Shown here in pieces: positions 1 to 8,961 of a stretch of 8,961 nt of DNA. Where the stretch lies: IMG/VR virus record IMGVR_UViG_2534682331_000006. The stretch is one strand, 5' to 3'. Origin of the DNA: a virus. Lineage: Duplodnaviria; Heunggongvirae; Uroviricota; Caudoviricetes. Below the pieces are notes generated by a model, which was given only the letters and a program-made list of their open reading frames with translations, had not been told where the DNA came from and searched no databases. The position numbers were made by a program, and so were the translations under genes. Numbering within the stretch: the first letter of the stretch is position 1; each line of letters begins with the position of its first letter.

Positions 1-323
1 AACTGGCGAAAGCGTTCGCATACGCCCTGAACCAGTGGCCGGCGCTGACGTACTATGCAGATGATGGCTGGGCTGAGGCGGACAATAACATCGCTGAAAA
101 TGCGTTGCGGATGGTCAGTCTGGGCCGCAAAAACTACCTGTTCTTCGGTTCGGATCATGGAGGAGAGCGGGGAGCGCTGCTGTACAGCCTGATCGGGACG
201 TGCAAACTGAACGGAGTGGAGCCAGAAAGCTACCTCCGCTATGTCCTTGACGTCATAGCCGACTGGCCGATAAACCGGGTCGGCGAACTGCTCCCCTGGC
301 GCGTAGCACTGCCGACTGAATAA
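1..323 (+). CDS. IS66-family transposase (TnpC-like), C-terminal fragment; 5' end lies outside the window
   Basis: Reading frame is open from position 3 to the TAA at 321..323. Translation (...LAKAFAYALNQWPALTYYADDGWAEADNNIAENALRMVSLGRKNYLFFGSDHGGERGALLYSLIGTCKLNGVEPESYLRYVLDVIADWPINRVGELLPWRVALPTE) matches my recollection of the conserved C-terminus of IS66-family TnpC. An identical protein is encoded on the - strand at the other end of the window. Confidence 0.85.
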   Translation, partial: LAKAFAYALNQWPALTYYADDGWAEADNNIAENALRMVSLGRKNYLFFGSDHGGERGALLYSLIGTCKLNGVEPESYLRYVLDVIADWPINRVGELLPWRVALPTE

Positions 324-360
324 CACATCCCCGTCAATACGGTTCTTGCTGCACGCTTAC
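1..360 (+). mobile_element. IS66-family insertion sequence, terminal fragment (element continues left of window); transposase-distal end faces the phage genes
   Basis: Carries the C-terminal end of an IS66-type TnpC transposase (1..323) and ends ...GCACGCTTAC at 360, the complement of the GTAAGCG terminus typical of the IS66 family. Positions 1..360 are the reverse complement of 8571..8930 (checked by hand on 1..60 and 241..360; the two ORF translations are identical). Identity stops exactly at 360/361. Confidence 0.85.
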
Positions 361-2213
361 ATATCACCCACATTAATCTCCATATCAATTCACCGGGTGG
401 CGATGTCTTTGAAGGCATCGCCATTTTTAATGCGCTGAAAACACATGGTGCGTCCATTACCGTTTATGTCGACGGTGTGGCGGCATCAATGGCGTCGGTC
501 ATTGCGATGGTGGGAAACCCGGTCATTATGCCGGAAAACACCTTCATGATGATTCATAAACCATTTGGCTTTACGGGCGGTGATGCGGAGGACATGCGCA
601 CCTATGCCGACCTGCTCGATAAAGTTGAGGCGGTTCTGTTACCCGCTTATGCACAGAAAACCGGGAAAACCACCGATGAAATTGCTGCCATGCTGGCGGA
701 TGAGACCTGGATGTCCGGTGCCGAATGTCTGGCACATGGATTTGCTGATCAGGTGACGCCAGCCGTTAAGGCAATGGCATGTATTCAGTCAAAACGTACA
801 GAGGAATTTAAAAAGATGCCGGAATCCATTCGAAACATGATTACTCCGCCACGCAACAGTGCTCCACGCGTACAGGATAATGAACCTGCAGCTTCCCGGA
901 CGCCAGTGCAGGCAGCAGCACCCGTGGTGGATGAAAACAGTATCCGTGCGCAGGTACTGGCAGAGCAAAAAGCGCGTGTAAACGGTATTAATGATCTGTT
1001 TGCCATGTTTGGCGGGCGTTATCAGACGCTGCAGGCTCAGTGTCTTGCCGATCCTGAATGTTCGCTGGAGCAGGCCCGCGAAAAGCTGTTGAACGAGATG
1101 GGGCGCGAGTCCACGCCATCCAATAAAAATACCCCGGCTCATATTTATGCCGGTAACGGTAATTTTGTGGGGGACGGGATCCGCCAGGCGCTGATGGCGC
1201 GTGCCGGATTTGAAAAAACCGAACGTGATAATGTCTACAACGGGATGACCCTGCGTGAATATGCCCGTATGTCACTGACTGAACGGGGTATTGGGGTTTC
1301 CAGTTATAACCCGATGCAGATGGTCGGTGCGGCGTTCACACACAGTACGTCTGACTTCGGTAATATTCTGCTGGATGTTGCGAACAAAGCCATTCTGCAG
1401 GGCTGGGAAGATGCCCCTGAAACCTATGAACAGTGGACGCGGAAAGGTCAGTTGTCTGATTTTAAAATTGCCCATCGTGTGGGTATGGGGGGCTTCAGTG
1501 CTCTGCGTCAGGTGCGTGAAGGGGCGGAATATAAATACGTCACCACCGGAGATAAACAGGCCACTATTGCACTGGCGACCTATGGCGAGCTGTTCAGTAT
1601 CACCCGTCAGGCCATTATCAATGATGATCTGAATATGCTGACCGATGTCCCGATGAAACTGGGCCGTGCGGCGAAATCCACTATTGCCGATCTGGTTTAT
1701 GCCATTCTGACGTCTAACCCGAAAATCTCCACAGATAATGTAAGTCTGTTCGATAAAGCGAAACATGCAAACGTACTGGAGAGCGCTGCAATGGACGTGG
1801 AATCGCTGGATAAAGCCCGCCAGTTGATGCGCGTTCAGAAAGAGGGGGAGCGTCATCTGAATATTCGTCCTGCGTTCGTACTGGTACCGACGGCGATGGA
1901 GTCTGTTGCTAACCAGGTCATTCGCTCCTCAAGTGTCAAGGGGGCTGACATTAACGCCGGTATTATTAACCCGGTGAAAGATTTTGCGACCGTTATTGCA
2001 GAGCCTCGTCTTGATGATAACAGCCTGACCACCTTCTACCTGGCTGCGTCAAAAGGCTCCGATACGATTGAAGTGGCTTATCTCAACGGTGTGGATACGC
2101 CATATATTGATCAGATGGAGGGCTTCAGTGTGGATGGCGTGACAACGAAAGTGCGTATTGACGCCGGTGTCGCGCCAGTTGATCACCGCGGTCTGGTGAA
2201 ATGTACGGCGTAA
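361..2213 (+). CDS. ClpP-like prohead protease / major capsid protein fusion, 5'-truncated by the IS66 insertion (probable pseudogene; first in-frame start codons are GTG 477 and ATG 486)
   Basis: Frame is open from the IS junction to the stop at 2211..2213. Its N-terminal part reads ...INSPGGDVFEGIAIFNALKTHGASITVYVDGVAASMASVIAMVG...MIHKP, which resembles ClpP (INSPGG; catalytic Ser in a GxAASM-like motif; His in MIHxP), but the roughly 60 residues that precede INSPGG in ClpP are missing and no start codon lies upstream of 477. The roughly 370 C-terminal residues look like an HK97-fold major capsid domain, joined by an Ala/Pro/Gln-rich linker. The architecture matches prophage proteins annotated as ClpP-like prohead protease/major capsid fusion. 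Subfamily assignment needs an HMM search. Confidence 0.8.
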
Positions 2214-2236
2214 ACGTCGCAGACAACAACTCTGAT

Positions 2237-2256
2237 GGCCCGTAAGGGCTTTTTTT
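2237..2256 (+). terminator. Putative intrinsic terminator downstream of the major capsid gene
   Basis: Short GC stem gccc/gggc (2238..2241 with 2246..2249) closed by a GNRA-type tetraloop GTAA (2242..2245), followed by a T run (2250..2256), 24 nt after the capsid stop codon. The stem is short, so termination is probably partial. Confidence 0.5.
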
Positions 2257-2299
2257 GTACCTGAAATCAGCCCCTGAACGGGGCTGTGCGGAGACAGTT

Positions 2300-2623
2300 A
2301 TGGCAAAGAATTTTGTAGAAGAAGGAAAAACGGTGGCGATTGTTGCCAGTGCAGCCATCAGCAGTGGAGATCTGGTGCAGGTGGGGGATGTTTTTGCGGT
2401 AGCGCTGACCGATATTCCACAGGGTGAAACAGGCGACGGCCTGACCGAAGGTGTGTTTATGCTGCCTAAGCTGAAAACGGATGACATGAAAACGGGTAAG
2501 AAGGTTTATCTGAAGTCCGGAAAAGTTCAGTTGACTAACAGCGGCTCTGATCCGCTGGTCGGGGTTGTCTGGGCAGATGCCGGAACCAGTGCAGAAGAAG
2601 TGCCGGTAAAACTCAATGTCTGA
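2300..2623 (+). CDS. Small head protein, DUF2190-like (possible capsid decoration/cement protein)
   Basis: 107-aa ORF directly downstream of the major capsid gene; ATG at 2300 preceded by GGAGAC (2289..2294). Gly/Val-rich, predicted beta-rich sequence (MAKNFVEEGKTVAIVASAAISSGDLVQVGDVFAVAL...) of the kind found next to HK97-type capsid genes. The longer ORF-track start at 2255 lacks an RBS and overlaps the terminator hairpins. Confidence 0.5.
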   Translation: MAKNFVEEGKTVAIVASAAISSGDLVQVGDVFAVALTDIPQGETGDGLTEGVFMLPKLKTDDMKTGKKVYLKSGKVQLTNSGSDPLVGVVWADAGTSAEEVPVKLNV

Positions 2624-2891
2624 TCCCTTTTCCCGGCTGGCAGCGCGTATGGATGCGATCACGGTCAGAAAGATGGGAAAGACAGCCTCGATTAATGATG
2701 TCGATATGACTGTGATCCCGGGAGAAACACTGGCAGAGCTGAATGCTCTGTCCGGACCTGCGGTCTCTCTGGTGGTGTTTTCTTCGGGATACCGCCCACG
2801 GCGCGGGGATCGCGTTGTTTATGACGGACAACAATGGACGGTCACACGGCATGAACGCTTTAACGGTAAGCCAATGATCTTTATTGAGTAA
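2616..2891 (+). CDS. Head-tail joining protein, lambda FII-like
   Basis: 91-aa ORF whose ATG overlaps the upstream stop (ATGTCTGA), suggesting translational coupling. Position between the head genes and Z, and the C-terminal motif RRGDRVVYDGQQWTV, resemble my recollection of lambda FII (RRGD...). Homology not verified by search. Confidence 0.6.
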   Translation: MSDPFSRLAARMDAITVRKMGKTASINDVDMTVIPGETLAELNALSGPAVSLVVFSSGYRPRRGDRVVYDGQQWTVTRHERFNGKPMIFIE

Positions 2892-2902
2892 AGAGGTGTG
2901 GG

Positions 2903-3493
2903 ATGAAGGGGCTTGAGAATGCTATCCGCAATCTGAACAGCCTTGATACCCGTATGGTGCCACAGGCCAGCGCATGGGCGATAAACCGTGTGGCACAGAA
3001 AGCGGTCTCGGTTGCCACCCGGCAGGTTGCCGGGAATACCGTTGCGGGAGATAACCAGGTGAAAGGGATCCCCCTGAAACTGGTACGTCAGCGTGTCCGG
3101 GTGTTTAAAGCCAGTCCGTCAGGAAAAATGACGGCCAGGATCCGCGTTAACCGGGGCAATCTGCCCACCATCAAGCTGAACACAACACGGCGGCGTGCTG
3201 GTGAAGGATTGAGAGTGGGAAAATACTTTTTCCGGGGGGCATTTATTCAGCAACTGGCGAATGGCCGCTGGCATGTTCTGAGGCGTCTTCCTGAAGCGCG
3301 TTTTGCAACAGGGCATGACCATCAGGGCAGGCCAAGAAAAAATCGTCTTCCTGTGGAGGTAGTGAAAATCCCGCTGTCCGGACCGCTGACACAGGCATTT
3401 GAAGATGCCCGCGACCGCATCATTGCTGCGGAAATGCCGAAACAGCTGGGGTATGCACTGAAACAACAACTGAGGTTATGGCTGACCCGATGA
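2903..3493 (+). CDS. Z: Minor tail protein Z (lambda gpZ family)
   Basis: 196 aa (lambda Z is about 192 aa); RBS AGAGG at 2892..2896, 6 nt before the ATG. N-terminus MKGLENAIRNLNSL..., internal GAFIQQLANGRWHV and C-terminus ...VVKIPLSGPLTQAF...LGYALKQQLRLW match my recollection of lambda Z. Synteny is Z-U-V-G-T-H. Confidence 0.85.
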   Translation: MKGLENAIRNLNSLDTRMVPQASAWAINRVAQKAVSVATRQVAGNTVAGDNQVKGIPLKLVRQRVRVFKASPSGKMTARIRVNRGNLPTIKLNTTRRRAGEGLRVGKYFFRGAFIQQLANGRWHVLRRLPEARFATGHDHQGRPRKNRLPVEVVKIPLSGPLTQAFEDARDRIIAAEMPKQLGYALKQQLRLWLTR

Positions 3494-3891
3494 ACCGACA
3501 TACACAAATCCGCCAGGTCGTACTAGCACGCCTTCGGAAACAGTGTGGAGACAGCGCCACGTTTTTTGACGGGCTTCCGGCATTTGTTGATGCGCAGGAA
3601 CTGCCTGCCGTGGCGGTGTGGCTGAGTGATGCTCAGTACACCGGAAAAATGACGGATGAAGATGACTGGCAGGCTGTTCTGCATATTGCTGTCTTCATCC
3701 GGGCACAGGCACCGGATTCAGAGCTGGATATGTGGATGGAGAGCACCATTTTCCCGGCCCTGAATGATATACCGGCACTTTCCGGACTCATCGACACCCT
3801 GATCCCACTCGGTTTTAACTATCAACGTGATAATGAGATGGCCACCTGGGCGATGGCGGAAATCACGTACCAGATCACGTACACGAATTAA
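3490..3891 (+). CDS. U: Tail terminator protein U (lambda gpU family)
   Basis: 133 aa from ATG 3490, which overlaps the Z stop (ATGA). Motifs ATFFDG, LPAVAVWL, AQYTG, PDSELDMWMES and DIPALS match lambda U as I recall it. The ORF track offers an alternative start at 3478 (4 codons longer); 3490 aligns better with lambda U. Confidence 0.85.
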   Translation: MNRHTQIRQVVLARLRKQCGDSATFFDGLPAFVDAQELPAVAVWLSDAQYTGKMTDEDDWQAVLHIAVFIRAQAPDSELDMWMESTIFPALNDIPALSGLIDTLIPLGFNYQRDNEMATWAMAEITYQITYTN

Positions 3892-3901
3892 GGAGGTGGT
3901 A

Positions 3902-4645
3902 ATGACCACACCAAATCCACTGGCAAAAACGAAAGGTGCGGGAACGACGTTCTGGATGTATACCGGCAACGGCGATGCGTTTGCGAACCCTTTGTCGGAC
4001 ACTGACTGGTTGCGTCTTGCGATGGTGAAGGATCTGCAACCTGGCGAAATGACCGCTGATGCAGAAGATGACACTTATCTCGATGATGAAGATGCAGACT
4101 GGAAAACGACAACCCAGGGGCAGAAATCCGTCGGTGATACTTCGGCGACGCTGGCCTGGCGTCCGGGGGACAGCGGGCAGAAAAAACTGGTTCAGTTGTT
4201 CGACTCCGGTGAAGTCTGCGCGTTTCGTATCAAATATCCCAACGGTACTGTTGATGTTTTCCGTGGCTGGCTGAGTTCACTGGGTAAAACCATTGCCTCA
4301 AAAGACGTGATGACCCGCACCGTGAAAATCAGCGGTGTGGGGCGTCCGTATCTGGCAGAGGAAGGCACTGAAACCGTGGGCGTTACCGGGCTGACGGTGG
4401 CACCGGCATCTGCCAGTGTAAAAGTGGGAGCAACCACCACGCTGACCTTTACAGTAAAACCTGACGGAGCCAGTGACAAAGCGATCAGTGTGCATTCGAC
4501 AGATCCACAGACTGCCACGGTGACCCTGAACGGGCTTGTGGCCACGGTGAAAGGCGTGAAGCAGGGCAGTGTCAGCATTGTGGGCATGACTTCTGACGGC
4601 GATTTTGTGGCAGTGGCTACGGTGGCTGTCAGCGCCGCAGGTTAA
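3902..4645 (+). CDS. V: Major tail protein V (lambda gpV family) with C-terminal Ig-like domain
   Basis: 247 aa (lambda V is about 246 aa); strong RBS AAGGAGGTGG at 3890..3899 before ATG 3902. MTTPNPLAKTKGAGTTFWMY..., YLDDEDADW and FPNGTVDVFRGW match lambda V closely. The C-terminal part (GVTGLTVAPASASVKVGATTTLTFTVKPDGASDK...) is Big_2/Ig-like, as in lambda V. The ORF-track start at 3827 is an in-frame extension overlapping U with no RBS. Confidence 0.92.
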   Translation: MTTPNPLAKTKGAGTTFWMYTGNGDAFANPLSDTDWLRLAMVKDLQPGEMTADAEDDTYLDDEDADWKTTTQGQKSVGDTSATLAWRPGDSGQKKLVQLFDSGEVCAFRIKYPNGTVDVFRGWLSSLGKTIASKDVMTRTVKISGVGRPYLAEEGTETVGVTGLTVAPASASVKVGATTTLTFTVKPDGASDKAISVHSTDPQTATVTLNGLVATVKGVKQGSVSIVGMTSDGDFVAVATVAVSAAG

Positions 4646-4665
4646 CAGGACGATACTCATCATTT

Positions 4666-4689
4666 GCCCCGGTTATCCGGGGCTTTTTT
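4666..4689 (+). terminator. Rho-independent terminator downstream of V
   Basis: Perfect 7-bp GC-rich stem GCCCCGG (4666..4672) / CCGGGGC (4677..4683) with loop TTAT, immediately followed by TTTTTT (4684..4689). Lies between the V stop (4645) and the G RBS. Confidence 0.8.
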
Positions 4690-4702
4690 GCAGGTGGAGA
4701 AC

Positions 4703-5092
4703 ATGATGTTTCTGAAACAGGGCACGTTTAATTATGAAAAACAGTCCGTGGTGCTCAGTGAGCTGTCCGGGCTGCAGAGAATTGAATATCTGGCGTTTGT
4801 TCAGCAGCGAACGGCAAAGTTTGATGCCGGGGAGGGAGAACTGCCGGAGGCTGAACGACAGATTGCTTTTCTGCGGATGGGGATGGATATCAATGCCTGG
4901 CTGGTTTCCCGCTCACTGTGGAATGCGGATCAGTCTAAGGATGTAGAGACGCTTTGCGCATCCGTTATTACAACATGGTCGTATGATGCCCTGGGTGCGG
5001 GGGCGGAGATGGTTCTGTCGCTGAGCGGTATGGGGGCCATTGATAATGCCGGGGATGATGAGCATGAGGCGCTGACGCCGGAAAAGTCCTGA
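4703..5092 (+). CDS. G: Tail assembly chaperone G (lambda gpG family)
   Basis: 129 aa from ATG 4703, with a second ATG at 4706; RBS GGTGGAGA at 4693..4700. MMFLKQGTFNYEKQSVVLSELSGLQRIEYLAF resembles lambda G (MFLK...VTLSELSALQRIEHLA). The ORF-track start at 4664 would lie inside the upstream terminator. Confidence 0.85.
   Translation: MMFLKQGTFNYEKQSVVLSELSGLQRIEYLAFVQQRTAKFDAGEGELPEAERQIAFLRMGMDINAWLVSRSLWNADQSKDVETLCASVITTWSYDALGAGAEMVLSLSGMGAIDNAGDDEHEALTPEKS
5080..5086 (+). other. Candidate -1 programmed ribosomal frameshift site joining G to T (GGAAAAG)
   Basis: The T reading frame is -1 relative to G and is open only from 5068, so any shift must occur within 5068..5089. The only slippery-looking sequence there is G GAA AAG (G frame). 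Lambda uses G GGA AAG at the same place. A -1 slip on AAG to AAA would give ...ALTPEK-VLTREMQFVMRLAREF... Confidence 0.55.
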
Positions 5093-5100
5093 CGCGGGAA

Positions 5101-5430
5101 ATGCAGTTTGTCATGCGGCTTGCCCGGGAGTTCCGGCGGGCAGACTGGCGGCGGATGCTGTCGGAAATGTCGGCCACTGAGCTTGGTGAGTGGGGCGATT
5201 ATTTCCGGATGCAGAGCTTCAGTGATGTGTGGATGGATGCGCAGTTTGCCTCGCTGAAGGCATTGATCGTGAGAATGGTGTCCGGCAGCAGTGATGCTGC
5301 GGTGGCTGATTTCAGCCTTTTACCGGAAGAGAACGGGATACCGGAGCGAACGGACGAAGAACTGATGCATCTTGGAGAAGGTATTTCCGGAGGTGTGCGT
5401 TATGGACCAGATAGCCAACCTGGTCATTGA
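5101..5430 (+). CDS. T: Tail assembly chaperone T-domain ORF (lambda gpT family), expected to be made only as a G-T fusion by -1 frameshifting
   Basis: -1 frame ORF overlapping the 3' end of G; MRLAREFRRADWRRML... resembles the start of lambda T. No RBS precedes ATG 5101 and the frame is open upstream to 5068, consistent with frameshift expression. Coordinates are those of the ORF-track segment. Confidence 0.75.
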   Translation: MQFVMRLAREFRRADWRRMLSEMSATELGEWGDYFRMQSFSDVWMDAQFASLKALIVRMVSGSSDAAVADFSLLPEENGIPERTDEELMHLGEGISGGVRYGPDSQPGH

Positions 5431-8400: not shown

Positions 8401-8458
8401 GGACTTTATGCAACAGCAGGCCCGTGATGGTGGTCGGTTAAGTGGAGCATATCGGTAA
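5402..8458 (+). CDS. H: Tail tape measure protein H (lambda gpH family)
   Basis: 1018 aa from ATG 5402; RBS GGAGG at 5389..5393. N-terminus MDQIANLVIDLGIDAAEF resembles lambda H (...GDLVVDLSLDAARF...), and the C-terminus ...INNDGTNGQIGPAALKVVYDLGKKAAADFMQQQARDGG matches the lambda H C-terminus. Long Ala/Gln/Glu/Arg-rich predicted coiled-coil regions in between. The ORF track's TTG start at 5372 is less likely. Confidence 0.92.
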   Translation: MDQIANLVIDLGIDAAEFKNEIPRIKNLLNGAASDAERSSARMQRFMERQTQAARQTTQAASSAATAASVHAQTVEKNAQAHERMAREVEKTRQRMEALSQKMRDEQAQAMALAEAQDKAAAAFYRQIDSVKQASAGLQELQRIQQQIRQARNSGGIGQQDYLALISEVTAKTRVLTQAEEEATRQKVAFIRQLKEQATRQNLSSSELLRAKAAQLGVSSAAEVYIRKMEQAGKATHSLGLKSAAARQEIGVLIGELARGNLGALRGSGITLANRAGWIDTLMSPKGMMLGGVIGGIAAAVYGLGKAWYDGQKEGEEFNRQLSLTGHYAGVTAGQLWTLSRAISGNGITQHAAAGALAQVVGSGAFRGNDIGMVARAAAQMERSVGQSVSDTISQFKRLKDDPVNAAKALDNELHFLTATQLEQIRVLGEQGRSSDAARIAMSALAEETGRRTADIDNNLNALGSTLKYLSDLWSRFWDAAMNIGREDSLDEQISALQEKVSRAKRLPWTASSSQVEYDQQRLNELQEKKRQKDLQDAKEQAERNYQEQQKRRNAENAALNRMNETEAARHQREIARINAMQYADQAVRDAAIQRENERYEKALASGKKKTRETRNDEATRLLLQYSQQQAQVEGQIAAARQSAGIATDRMTEAHKQLLALQQRISDLDGKKLTADEKSVLARKDELIQALTLLDVKQQELQKQTALNDLKKKTIQLTSQLAEEERAQRQQHDLDIATVGMGDQQRQRYQVQLSLRQKYQQQLEQLRRDSEQKGTYNTDDYRKAEQALTESLNRQLNENRRYWQQLEIAQGDWKNGVLRALQNVTEKADNTAGTVEQLFTSAFSSMSDWLATFCTTGKLNFKSFTSSVLSDMSRIMAQIALMKAVKGIASALPFDFVANADGGVYQSADLSRYSGTVVNRPTFFAFAKGAGVMGEAGPEAILPLRRGADGKLGVVADIGGSGMAMFAPQYNIEINNDGTNGQIGPAALKVVYDLGKKAAADFMQQQARDGGRLSGAYR

Positions 8459-8574
8459 TGGAGACGTTTCACTGGAAAGTGCGCCCGGATATGAATGTGG
8501 TATCAGAGCCGAAAGTGGTGACAGTGAAGCTGGGCGATGGTTATGAACAGCGTCGTGCGGCGGGACTGAAGTAA
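8458..8574 (+). pseudogene. M: Minor tail protein M (lambda gpM family), truncated after codon 37 by the IS66 insertion
   Basis: ATG at 8458 overlaps the H stop (TAATG). Translation METFHWKVRPDMNVVSEPKVVTVKLGDGYEQRRAAGL matches the lambda M N-terminus (MKTFRWKVKPGMDVASVP...GDGYSQRAPAGL...). The frame then runs into the IS terminus GTAAGCG at 8571, which supplies the last codon and a TAA stop. Lambda M is about 109 aa. Confidence 0.85.
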
Positions 8575-8961
8575 GCGTGCAGCAAGAACCGTATTGACGG
8601 GGATGTGTTATTCAGTCGGCAGTGCTACGCGCCAGGGGAGCAGTTCGCCGACCCGGTTTATCGGCCAGTCGGCTATGACGTCAAGGACATAGCGGAGGTA
8701 GCTTTCTGGCTCCACTCCGTTCAGTTTGCACGTCCCGATCAGGCTGTACAGCAGCGCTCCCCGCTCTCCTCCATGATCCGAACCGAAGAACAGGTAGTTT
8801 TTGCGGCCCAGACTGACCATCCGCAACGCATTTTCAGCGATGTTATTGTCCGCCTCAGCCCAGCCATCATCTGCATAGTACGTCAGCGCCGGCCACTGGT
8901 TCAGGGCGTATGCGAACGCTTTCGCCAGTTCTGAGTGTCGCGACAGGGTTTTCATCTTTTC
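8571..8961 (-). mobile_element. IS66-family insertion sequence, terminal fragment (element continues right of window); inverted relative to the left copy
   Basis: Begins GTAAGCGTGCAGCAAGAACCGTATTGACGGGGATGTG at 8571; 8571..8930 is the reverse complement of 1..360. Encodes the same TnpC C-terminus on the - strand. Flanking bases differ from those at the left copy (GGACTGAA at 8563..8570 versus ATATCACC at 361..368), so these are two separate junctions. Confidence 0.85.
8608..8961 (-). CDS. IS66-family transposase (TnpC-like), C-terminal fragment; 5' end lies outside the window
   Basis: - strand frame open from the window edge to the stop at 8608..8610. The translation contains the same 72-aa C-terminus as the left copy plus 43 further upstream residues (MKTLSRHSELAKAFAYALNQWPALTYYADDGWAEADNNIAENAL...). 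Confidence 0.85.
   Translation of the reverse strand, partial: EKMKTLSRHSELAKAFAYALNQWPALTYYADDGWAEADNNIAENALRMVSLGRKNYLFFGSDHGGERGALLYSLIGTCKLNGVEPESYLRYVLDVIADWPINRVGELLPWRVALPTE

Follow-up and report, generated by a model that had tools for sequence, protein, structure and literature searches.

ISEc22 and a head-gene remnant at the left end of the window

The window (the whole 8,961-nt stretch of DNA analysed here) makes up all of contig APYH01000055.1 (draft assembly GCA_000357265.2), and both of its ends are assembly breaks within an insertion sequence (IS) repeat. Inside the left end, an IS terminus abuts the 3′ part of a prophage head gene, and at the right end a tail gene runs into a second, inverted copy of the same terminus, as follows:

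1..323, + strand: 3′ end of the ISEc22 (IS66 family) tnpC gene, its last 106 codons and the TAA stop at 321-323 (Pfam and identity to the copy in L002)
324..360, + strand: non-coding; the ISEc22 right terminus (IRR), whose last bases ...GCACGCTTAC are the reverse complement of GTAAGCGTGC (identity and comparison of IRL with IRR)
361..368, + strand: right-hand copy of the 8-bp target-site duplication ATATCACC (empty site in L001 against the L019/L020 junctions)
361..2213, + strand: 3′ remnant (pseudogene) of a ClpP-like prohead protease/major capsid fusion gene, from the second base of codon 59 to codon 675 and the stop
384..401, + strand: INSPGG motif, residues 67-72 of the intact protein (translation, aligned to the INSPGG of solved ClpP chains)
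477..479, + strand: GTG, internal Val98 of the intact protein and the first canonical in-frame start-type codon
486..488, + strand: Ser101 codon in AASMAS, aligned with the ClpP catalytic serine motif AASM (phmmer)
555..557, + strand: His124 codon in the motif MIHKP (phmmer against the PDB ClpP chains 1y7o and 6hwm)
8458..8570, + strand: 5′ remnant of a gpM-like minor tail gene with 37 native codons left (109 aa where intact, in L003-L012)
8571..8961, - strand: second ISEc22 right end, inverted, with 8571..8930 matching the reverse complement of 1..360 at 100% identity (self-BLAST and L002)

The frame at 3-320 matched the Pfam families DDE_Tnp_IS66 (PF03050; 2e-18) and DDE_Tnp_IS66_C (PF13817; 1.3e-17), and by BLAST positions 1..360 were 100% identical to the right end of ISEc22 in E. 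coli GPEC464 (NZ_CM142811.1; L002), a copy named by PGAP 'IS66-like element ISEc22 family transposase'. That copy is full length at 2454 bp, its genes are annotated in the order tnpA-tnpB-tnpC and its tnpC comprises 1539 nt (512 aa); the tnpA start, which lies outside the window itself, adjoins the left terminus (IRL) in two sibling contigs (L019, L020). Both the GPEC464 copy and the inverted one at 8571..8930 cease to match immediately after position 360, which places the boundary between IS and host DNA at 360/361. The initial annotation had correctly recognised an insertion here but had set its boundary at the transposase stop codon, whereas the TAA is followed by another 37 nt of IS; codons 324-359, twelve in all, and the opening base of codon 360-362 therefore belong to the IS and not to the capsid gene. 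The IRL begins GTAAGCGTCG... and the reverse complement of the IRR GTAAGCGTGC..., the two having GTAAGCGT in common, so that they form imperfect inverted repeats beginning GTAAGCG, a terminus typical of the IS66 family. The transposase domains, the 100% identity, the GTAAGCGT termini and the 8-bp duplications at two independent sites all agree with ISEc22 and the IS66 family, and no difference was found in the last 360 bp held at this end of the window (391 bp in the second copy), the contig breaking inside the repeat. In the literature ISEc22 met only with incidental mentions, and a search on target duplication by IS66 elements found nothing usable.

Beyond the boundary, window 361..5200 shared 99.94% DNA identity (BLAST) with a lambdoid prophage of strain 120899 (L001), which carries the head gene intact. 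The intact CDS has 2028 nt and its nt 176 falls at position 361, so that 58 codons and 1 nt are missing on this side, close to the roughly 60 residues that had been estimated from the window. The remnant protein differs from the intact allele at two residues only, the hybrid codon 59 (Asp59 to His) and A539E. The frame at 324-2213 matched CLP_protease (2.2e-35) and Phage_capsid_4 (PF25209; 3.2e-54) and reads ...HINLHINSPGGDVFEG...VDGVAASMAS..., followed by the capsid domain. Of the 182 positions of the CLP_protease profile, 40-179 are kept in the window, as against 16-179 in the intact allele. The N-terminal ClpP-fold protease domain is thus incomplete in the window, with the Ser101 and His124 motifs present and residues 1-58 lying across the IS, and the C-terminal HK97-type capsid domain is retained. 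In alignment to solved ClpP chains, residue 58/59 of the fusion protein falls near ClpP residue 55. GTG 477 is indeed the first start-type codon, as had been proposed, but it was said to stand two codons before AASMAS, whereas Val98 abuts this motif and Ser101 follows three codons after. The D of GFAD was considered as the catalytic acid and dropped, the alignment placing the ClpP Asp position at D172/E173.

The intact gene, its displaced 5′ half and an independent insertion

In strain 120899 the gene is a single 675-aa CDS directly after the portal gene, annotated as 'ClpP-like prohead protease/major capsid protein fusion protein'. Fusions of a ClpP-like prohead protease with the major capsid protein are a known system, described in 2010 work as cited in PMC12315714 and PMC8538268. 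The intact allele resembles the Gifsy-2-type fusion in its layout, a single 675-aa ORF that follows the portal gene and joins a ClpP-like domain at the N-terminus to a Phage_capsid_4 domain at the C-terminus, whereas the window gene is split by the IS after codon 58-61 and keeps only the 3′ 617 codons; genes downstream match Pfam Phage_cement_2 and Gifsy-2 families. A single uninterrupted ORF of ~675 aa with its own start after the portal gene is absent in the window and was seen in L001 and L003-L013. All ten loci sharing an identical tape-measure protein (L003-L012) possess the 675-aa gene, and gpM is likewise intact in each of them. Of the 5426 complete E. coli genomes, 2048 matched without a break a 475-nt probe reaching from the start codon across the insertion site, and the fused gene was present over at least 80% of its length in 80 phage records, the closest being Escherichia phage Tritos (99.4% protein identity). 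Remote phage proteases of the stand-alone ClpP type begin to align at query residues 10-45 and solved ClpP chains at residue 54, and the Pfam CLP_protease match covers residues 31-191 of the intact protein.

The 5′ part of the gene was found in sibling E. coli P0299438 assemblies, on another contig, where it abuts the left end (IRL) of the IS. The three relevant junctions are (a slash marks the IS/host boundary):

Left junction (L019, L020): ...CTGGGCGATATCACC / GTAAGCGTCG... (IRL)
Window junction: ...GCACGCTTAC / ATATCACCCACATT...
Empty site (L001): ...CTGGGCG ATATCACC CACATT...

The octamer ATATCACC therefore stands on both sides of the head-gene insertion, at 361-368 in the window and in the sibling contigs L019 and L020, as an 8-bp duplication. 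A simple insertion predicts a stub protein ending in the native ...LNALGDIT, followed by VSVVSAPSGRS from the left end of the IS, and a homology search matched this exactly in a 49-aa protein of E. coli P0299438.5 (P0049), which starts at Met24; by exact look-up, the 72-aa version from the annotated GTG start was absent from the protein records. Contigs of 96 kb carry the stub at one end, between the portal gene, which it follows directly, and the IS tnpA, and in one assembly both halves of the gene were recovered (L016 and L020). Removal of the N-terminus, as first proposed, thus holds for the window side, but not for the genome: going by these contigs, the N-terminus is displaced across the 2454-bp IS, not deleted.

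The gene has been interrupted elsewhere by the same element. In five chicken isolates (GPEC464 and its relatives; L002) ISEc22 interrupts this gene too, in unchanged orientation but at a site 101 bp further downstream, with a different 8-bp duplication (GTTTATGT) and in another phase, such that the capsid frame is out of frame with tnpC; PGAP marks the two gene halves there as pseudogenes, 'incomplete; missing C-terminus' and 'missing N-terminus'. The different site, target duplication and phase identify this as an independent event.

A second ISEc22 copy and the distribution of the junctions

At the right end of the window, the gpM-like remnant runs into the inverted ISEc22 copy as a hybrid ORF of 38 aa (8458..8574). 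The same gpM junction occurs in contig JAAPMH010000050.1 (L013), in which the head gene is intact at 675 aa, so the head-gene and gpM insertions were separate events and the head-gene insertion was probably the later of the two. With two structural genes broken, the head fusion and the gpM-like gene, the prophage is defective and should be scored as such.

At least five other assemblies (four as L015-L018, plus one) contain near-identical contigs of 8.8-8.96 kb with the same head-gene junction, the proteins of these contigs being named as those of E. coli P0299438.x isolates. Both junctions were absent from all 5426 complete E. coli genomes. The exact 32-nt junction pattern had no match in the contigs of species-representative genomes or of metagenomes, which is expected of a genome set made up of species representatives.

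Origin of the split gene

We consider that a simple insertion of ISEc22 split a prophage head gene, that the remnant is a pseudogene and that its frame match with tnpC is accidental, and we place the probability of this reading at about 0.93. Directly observed are the point where the IS meets host DNA, the duplicated target, intact alleles and an independent insertion that is out of frame, and the matching ATATCACC copies on both sides point to one clean transposition. The course of events would have been a single conservative transposition of the 2454-bp ISEc22 into codon 59-61 of the fused prohead-protease/scaffold/major-capsid gene of a Gifsy-2-type lambdoid prophage, carried by Escherichia coli P0299438 isolates. 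This insertion would have duplicated the 8-bp target and divided the gene into a 5′ stub, whose 61 native codons run into the left end of the IS, and the piece at 361..2213, any product of which would miss between 58 and 97 residues at the N-terminus of the ClpP fold. A second break would be that made in the gpM-like tail gene by the inverted ISEc22 copy, and a prophage of this structure would be unable to build virions.

A variant of this scheme adds a later step, in which the 8.2-kb segment enclosed by the two ISEc22 copies was inverted through homologous recombination after the insertion, so that the remnant would now lie beside the flank distal to gpM and no longer beside its own 5′ stub. 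Two 100%-identical inverted IS copies do bracket the segment, and short-read contigs cannot fix its orientation; positive evidence for such an inversion was not found and we regard it as unlikely. It leaves the junctions and the main conclusion unchanged.

Two independent ISEc22 insertions 101 bp apart, in the same orientation and both in the head gene, together with near-identical prophages whose terminase gene carries other IS66-family insertions, could also be read to mean that Gifsy-2-type head genes are a preferred target of IS66-family elements, and that read-out from tnpC yields, at a low level, an N-truncated capsid-domain protein (from ATG 594, for instance) which hinders the assembly of superinfecting relatives. 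We hold this to be very doubtful.

The shared reading frame and expression of the remnant

The transposase and the capsid remnant lie in one reading frame, separated by the TAA at 321..323, and this frame stays open from 324 to the stop at 2211-2213, with no in-frame ATG, GTG or TTG between 324 and GTG 477; in all these respects translation agreed with the initial annotation, which had raised stop-codon readthrough or transcription out of the IS as conceivable and had thought coincidence the likelier cause. The 51-codon run free of start codons was examined as an unusual feature and rejected, as it is native to the intact gene (no ATG, GTG or TTG between codons 24 and 98) and not significant, a run as long arising in 17% of codon shuffles. 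The final 37 nt of the IS (324-360) contain no stop in any of the three frames, the last ones upstream being at 304, 317 and 321. Every insertion in this orientation therefore produces an ORF that reads back into the IS, and a match between the tnpC and capsid frames is a 1-in-3 event.

Were the frame in use, read-out from tnpC with readthrough of the TAA, or with reinitiation after it, would produce a TnpC-protease-capsid chimera or an N-truncated functional capsid protein. A single stop does separate the two same-frame ORFs. In a scan of 1..900 no terminator was detected on the + strand, so that none separates tnpC from the remnant, and it is plausible that read-out transcripts from tnpC cover the latter. 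An internal ATG at 594, located after Ser101 and His124, is preceded by an SD-like GGAGG (-9.5 kcal/mol), and some N-truncated polypeptide might be translated from it.

Against this stands, besides the prior of one in three, the independent GPEC464 insertion, which is out of frame, so that nothing of the arrangement is conserved. A recoded stop should show a downstream ORF kept in frame across independent occurrences and a leaky stop codon; here the GPEC464 ORF is out of frame and the stop is TAA. In E. coli no stop is tighter than UAA, an efficient terminator, and a recoding signal is not known for the tnpC of IS66 elements. GTG 477 lacks an SD, its anti-SD pairing of -1.5 kcal/mol being weaker than the background mean (-3.3) and than that of real gene starts in the window (-3.0 to -13.4), and a product begun there would miss 97 residues, INSPGG included. 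A crude consensus scan for sigma-70-like promoters on either strand of 1..900 gave 0 sites, with 0.8 expected. The remnant products starting from GTG 477 (578 aa, whether read as V or M) and from ATG 489 (574 aa) are absent from the called genes on record, and the prophage is also without an intact gpM. Taken together, use of the shared frame appears highly improbable. The match between tnpC and capsid frames is a chance of insertion phase, the earlier suspicion of coincidence being upheld by the prior of 1/3 and by the out-of-frame GPEC464 insertion. We infer that the remnant is not expressed and that its protease domain does not fold.

The junction might instead be an assembly artefact, a chimeric contig joining IS and prophage reads, for which the window, a short draft contig with both ends within a repeat, would be a natural candidate. 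The same junction is, however, repeated in at least five further assemblies, the complementary junction stands on another contig with exactly the 8-bp duplication expected of IS66-family transposition, and the break falls exactly at the GTAAGCG terminus of the IS, leaving this explanation extremely improbable.

That the gene is intact with a natural start around 477 and the IS intergenic is scarcely credible, as the DNA at 361-476 matches coding sequence from inside the 675-aa gene with 100% identity, the uninterrupted gene occurs in 2048 genomes, and phage proteases, ClpP chains and the Pfam profile all align further upstream; homologues beginning at the equivalent of 477..486, which had been named as the finding that would overturn the insertion, were looked for, and none starting near 477 or the Val98 equivalent occurred among the genomes, loci and phage records compared, the homologues being 675 aa long with starts 97 codons upstream.

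Annotation of the remnant

Simple insertion of ISEc22 makes this an ordinary IS-split prophage pseudogene of an already known kind, PGAP having annotated the analogous ISEc22-split copy in GPEC464, and its significance beyond annotation is small. As a worked example, it demonstrates that an ORF running back into an IS is no evidence of a fusion, given that a third of the ISEc22 insertions made this way round will appear 'in frame' with tnpC. The source record calls a gene in the remnant at 1167..2213 only (348 aa, capsid domain only), under the name 'mu-like prophage major head subunit gpT family protein', which is not appropriate; 361..2213 is better annotated as the 3′ half of a pseudogene.

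Order and arrangement of the ISEc22 insertions

The gpM-like minor tail gene is cut by a second copy of the IS66-family insertion sequence ISEc22, which leaves 37 native codons before the break, and the junction gives rise to a short hybrid reading frame:

8458..8574, 38 aa hybrid ORF, product of the gpM-like gene/ISEc22 junction
8571..8961, second ISEc22 right end, inverted, 100% identical

As this copy is inverted, an 8.2 kb head-tail segment is flanked by inverted IS copies, with the IRR ends of both pointing inward. The same gpM/ISEc22 junction is found in the comparison locus JAAPMH010000050.1 (1729..10190), yet there the 675-aa protease/capsid gene is intact, so the head-gene and gpM insertions were separate events, and the head-gene insertion was probably the later of the two. 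The window is the full draft-assembly contig APYH01000055.1 (GCA_000357265.2), both ends of which are assembly breaks within the IS repeat. In the prophage the 8.2 kb segment may lie either way round, and it could flip via recombination between the inverted copies.

Recurrent disruption of the prophage lineage

NZ_CM142811.1 (3623..8112) and four related GPEC chicken isolates also carry ISEc22 in the protease/capsid gene, in the orientation seen in the window but as an independent insertion. It lies 101 bp downstream of the insertion in the window, at the equivalent of window 462-469, with a target-site duplication of GTTTATGT, and at that site the capsid and tnpC frames do not match. With two insertions so close together, one may ask whether ISEc22 favours this locality as a target.

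A different IS66-family element (tnpA 215-225 aa) lies inside the large terminase gene of near-identical prophages of ETEC-type strains (120899, 504237, LR883006 and others), in either orientation (L003, L007 and L008 at 1..1933, L009 at 365..3120; all fetched comparison loci). IS66-family elements are repeated invaders of this prophage lineage. Two protein records are N-terminal fragments of the fusion gene: in P0064 (E. coli p0305293.7, 97 aa) the reading frame is lost immediately beyond VDGVAA, where the catalytic-Ser motif lies, and in P0031 (83 aa) it is lost beyond DITHI. These could be additional independent disruptions or sequencing errors.

Annotation and further reading frames

The sole call at 1167..2213 in the source record is a 348-aa, GTG-started ORF labelled 'mu-like prophage major head subunit gpT family protein', which masks its true nature as the tail of the split 675-aa protease/capsid gene. 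Three further reading frames were noted:

239..457, minus strand, ATG-started 72 aa ORF spanning the IS/host junction
4706..5092, gpG-like tail assembly chaperone gene
5101..5430, gpT-like tail assembly chaperone gene

The first is most likely spurious. The gpG-like and gpT-like genes are neighbours (4706..5430) in the same arrangement as in lambda, where G-T is produced through a -1 frameshift.
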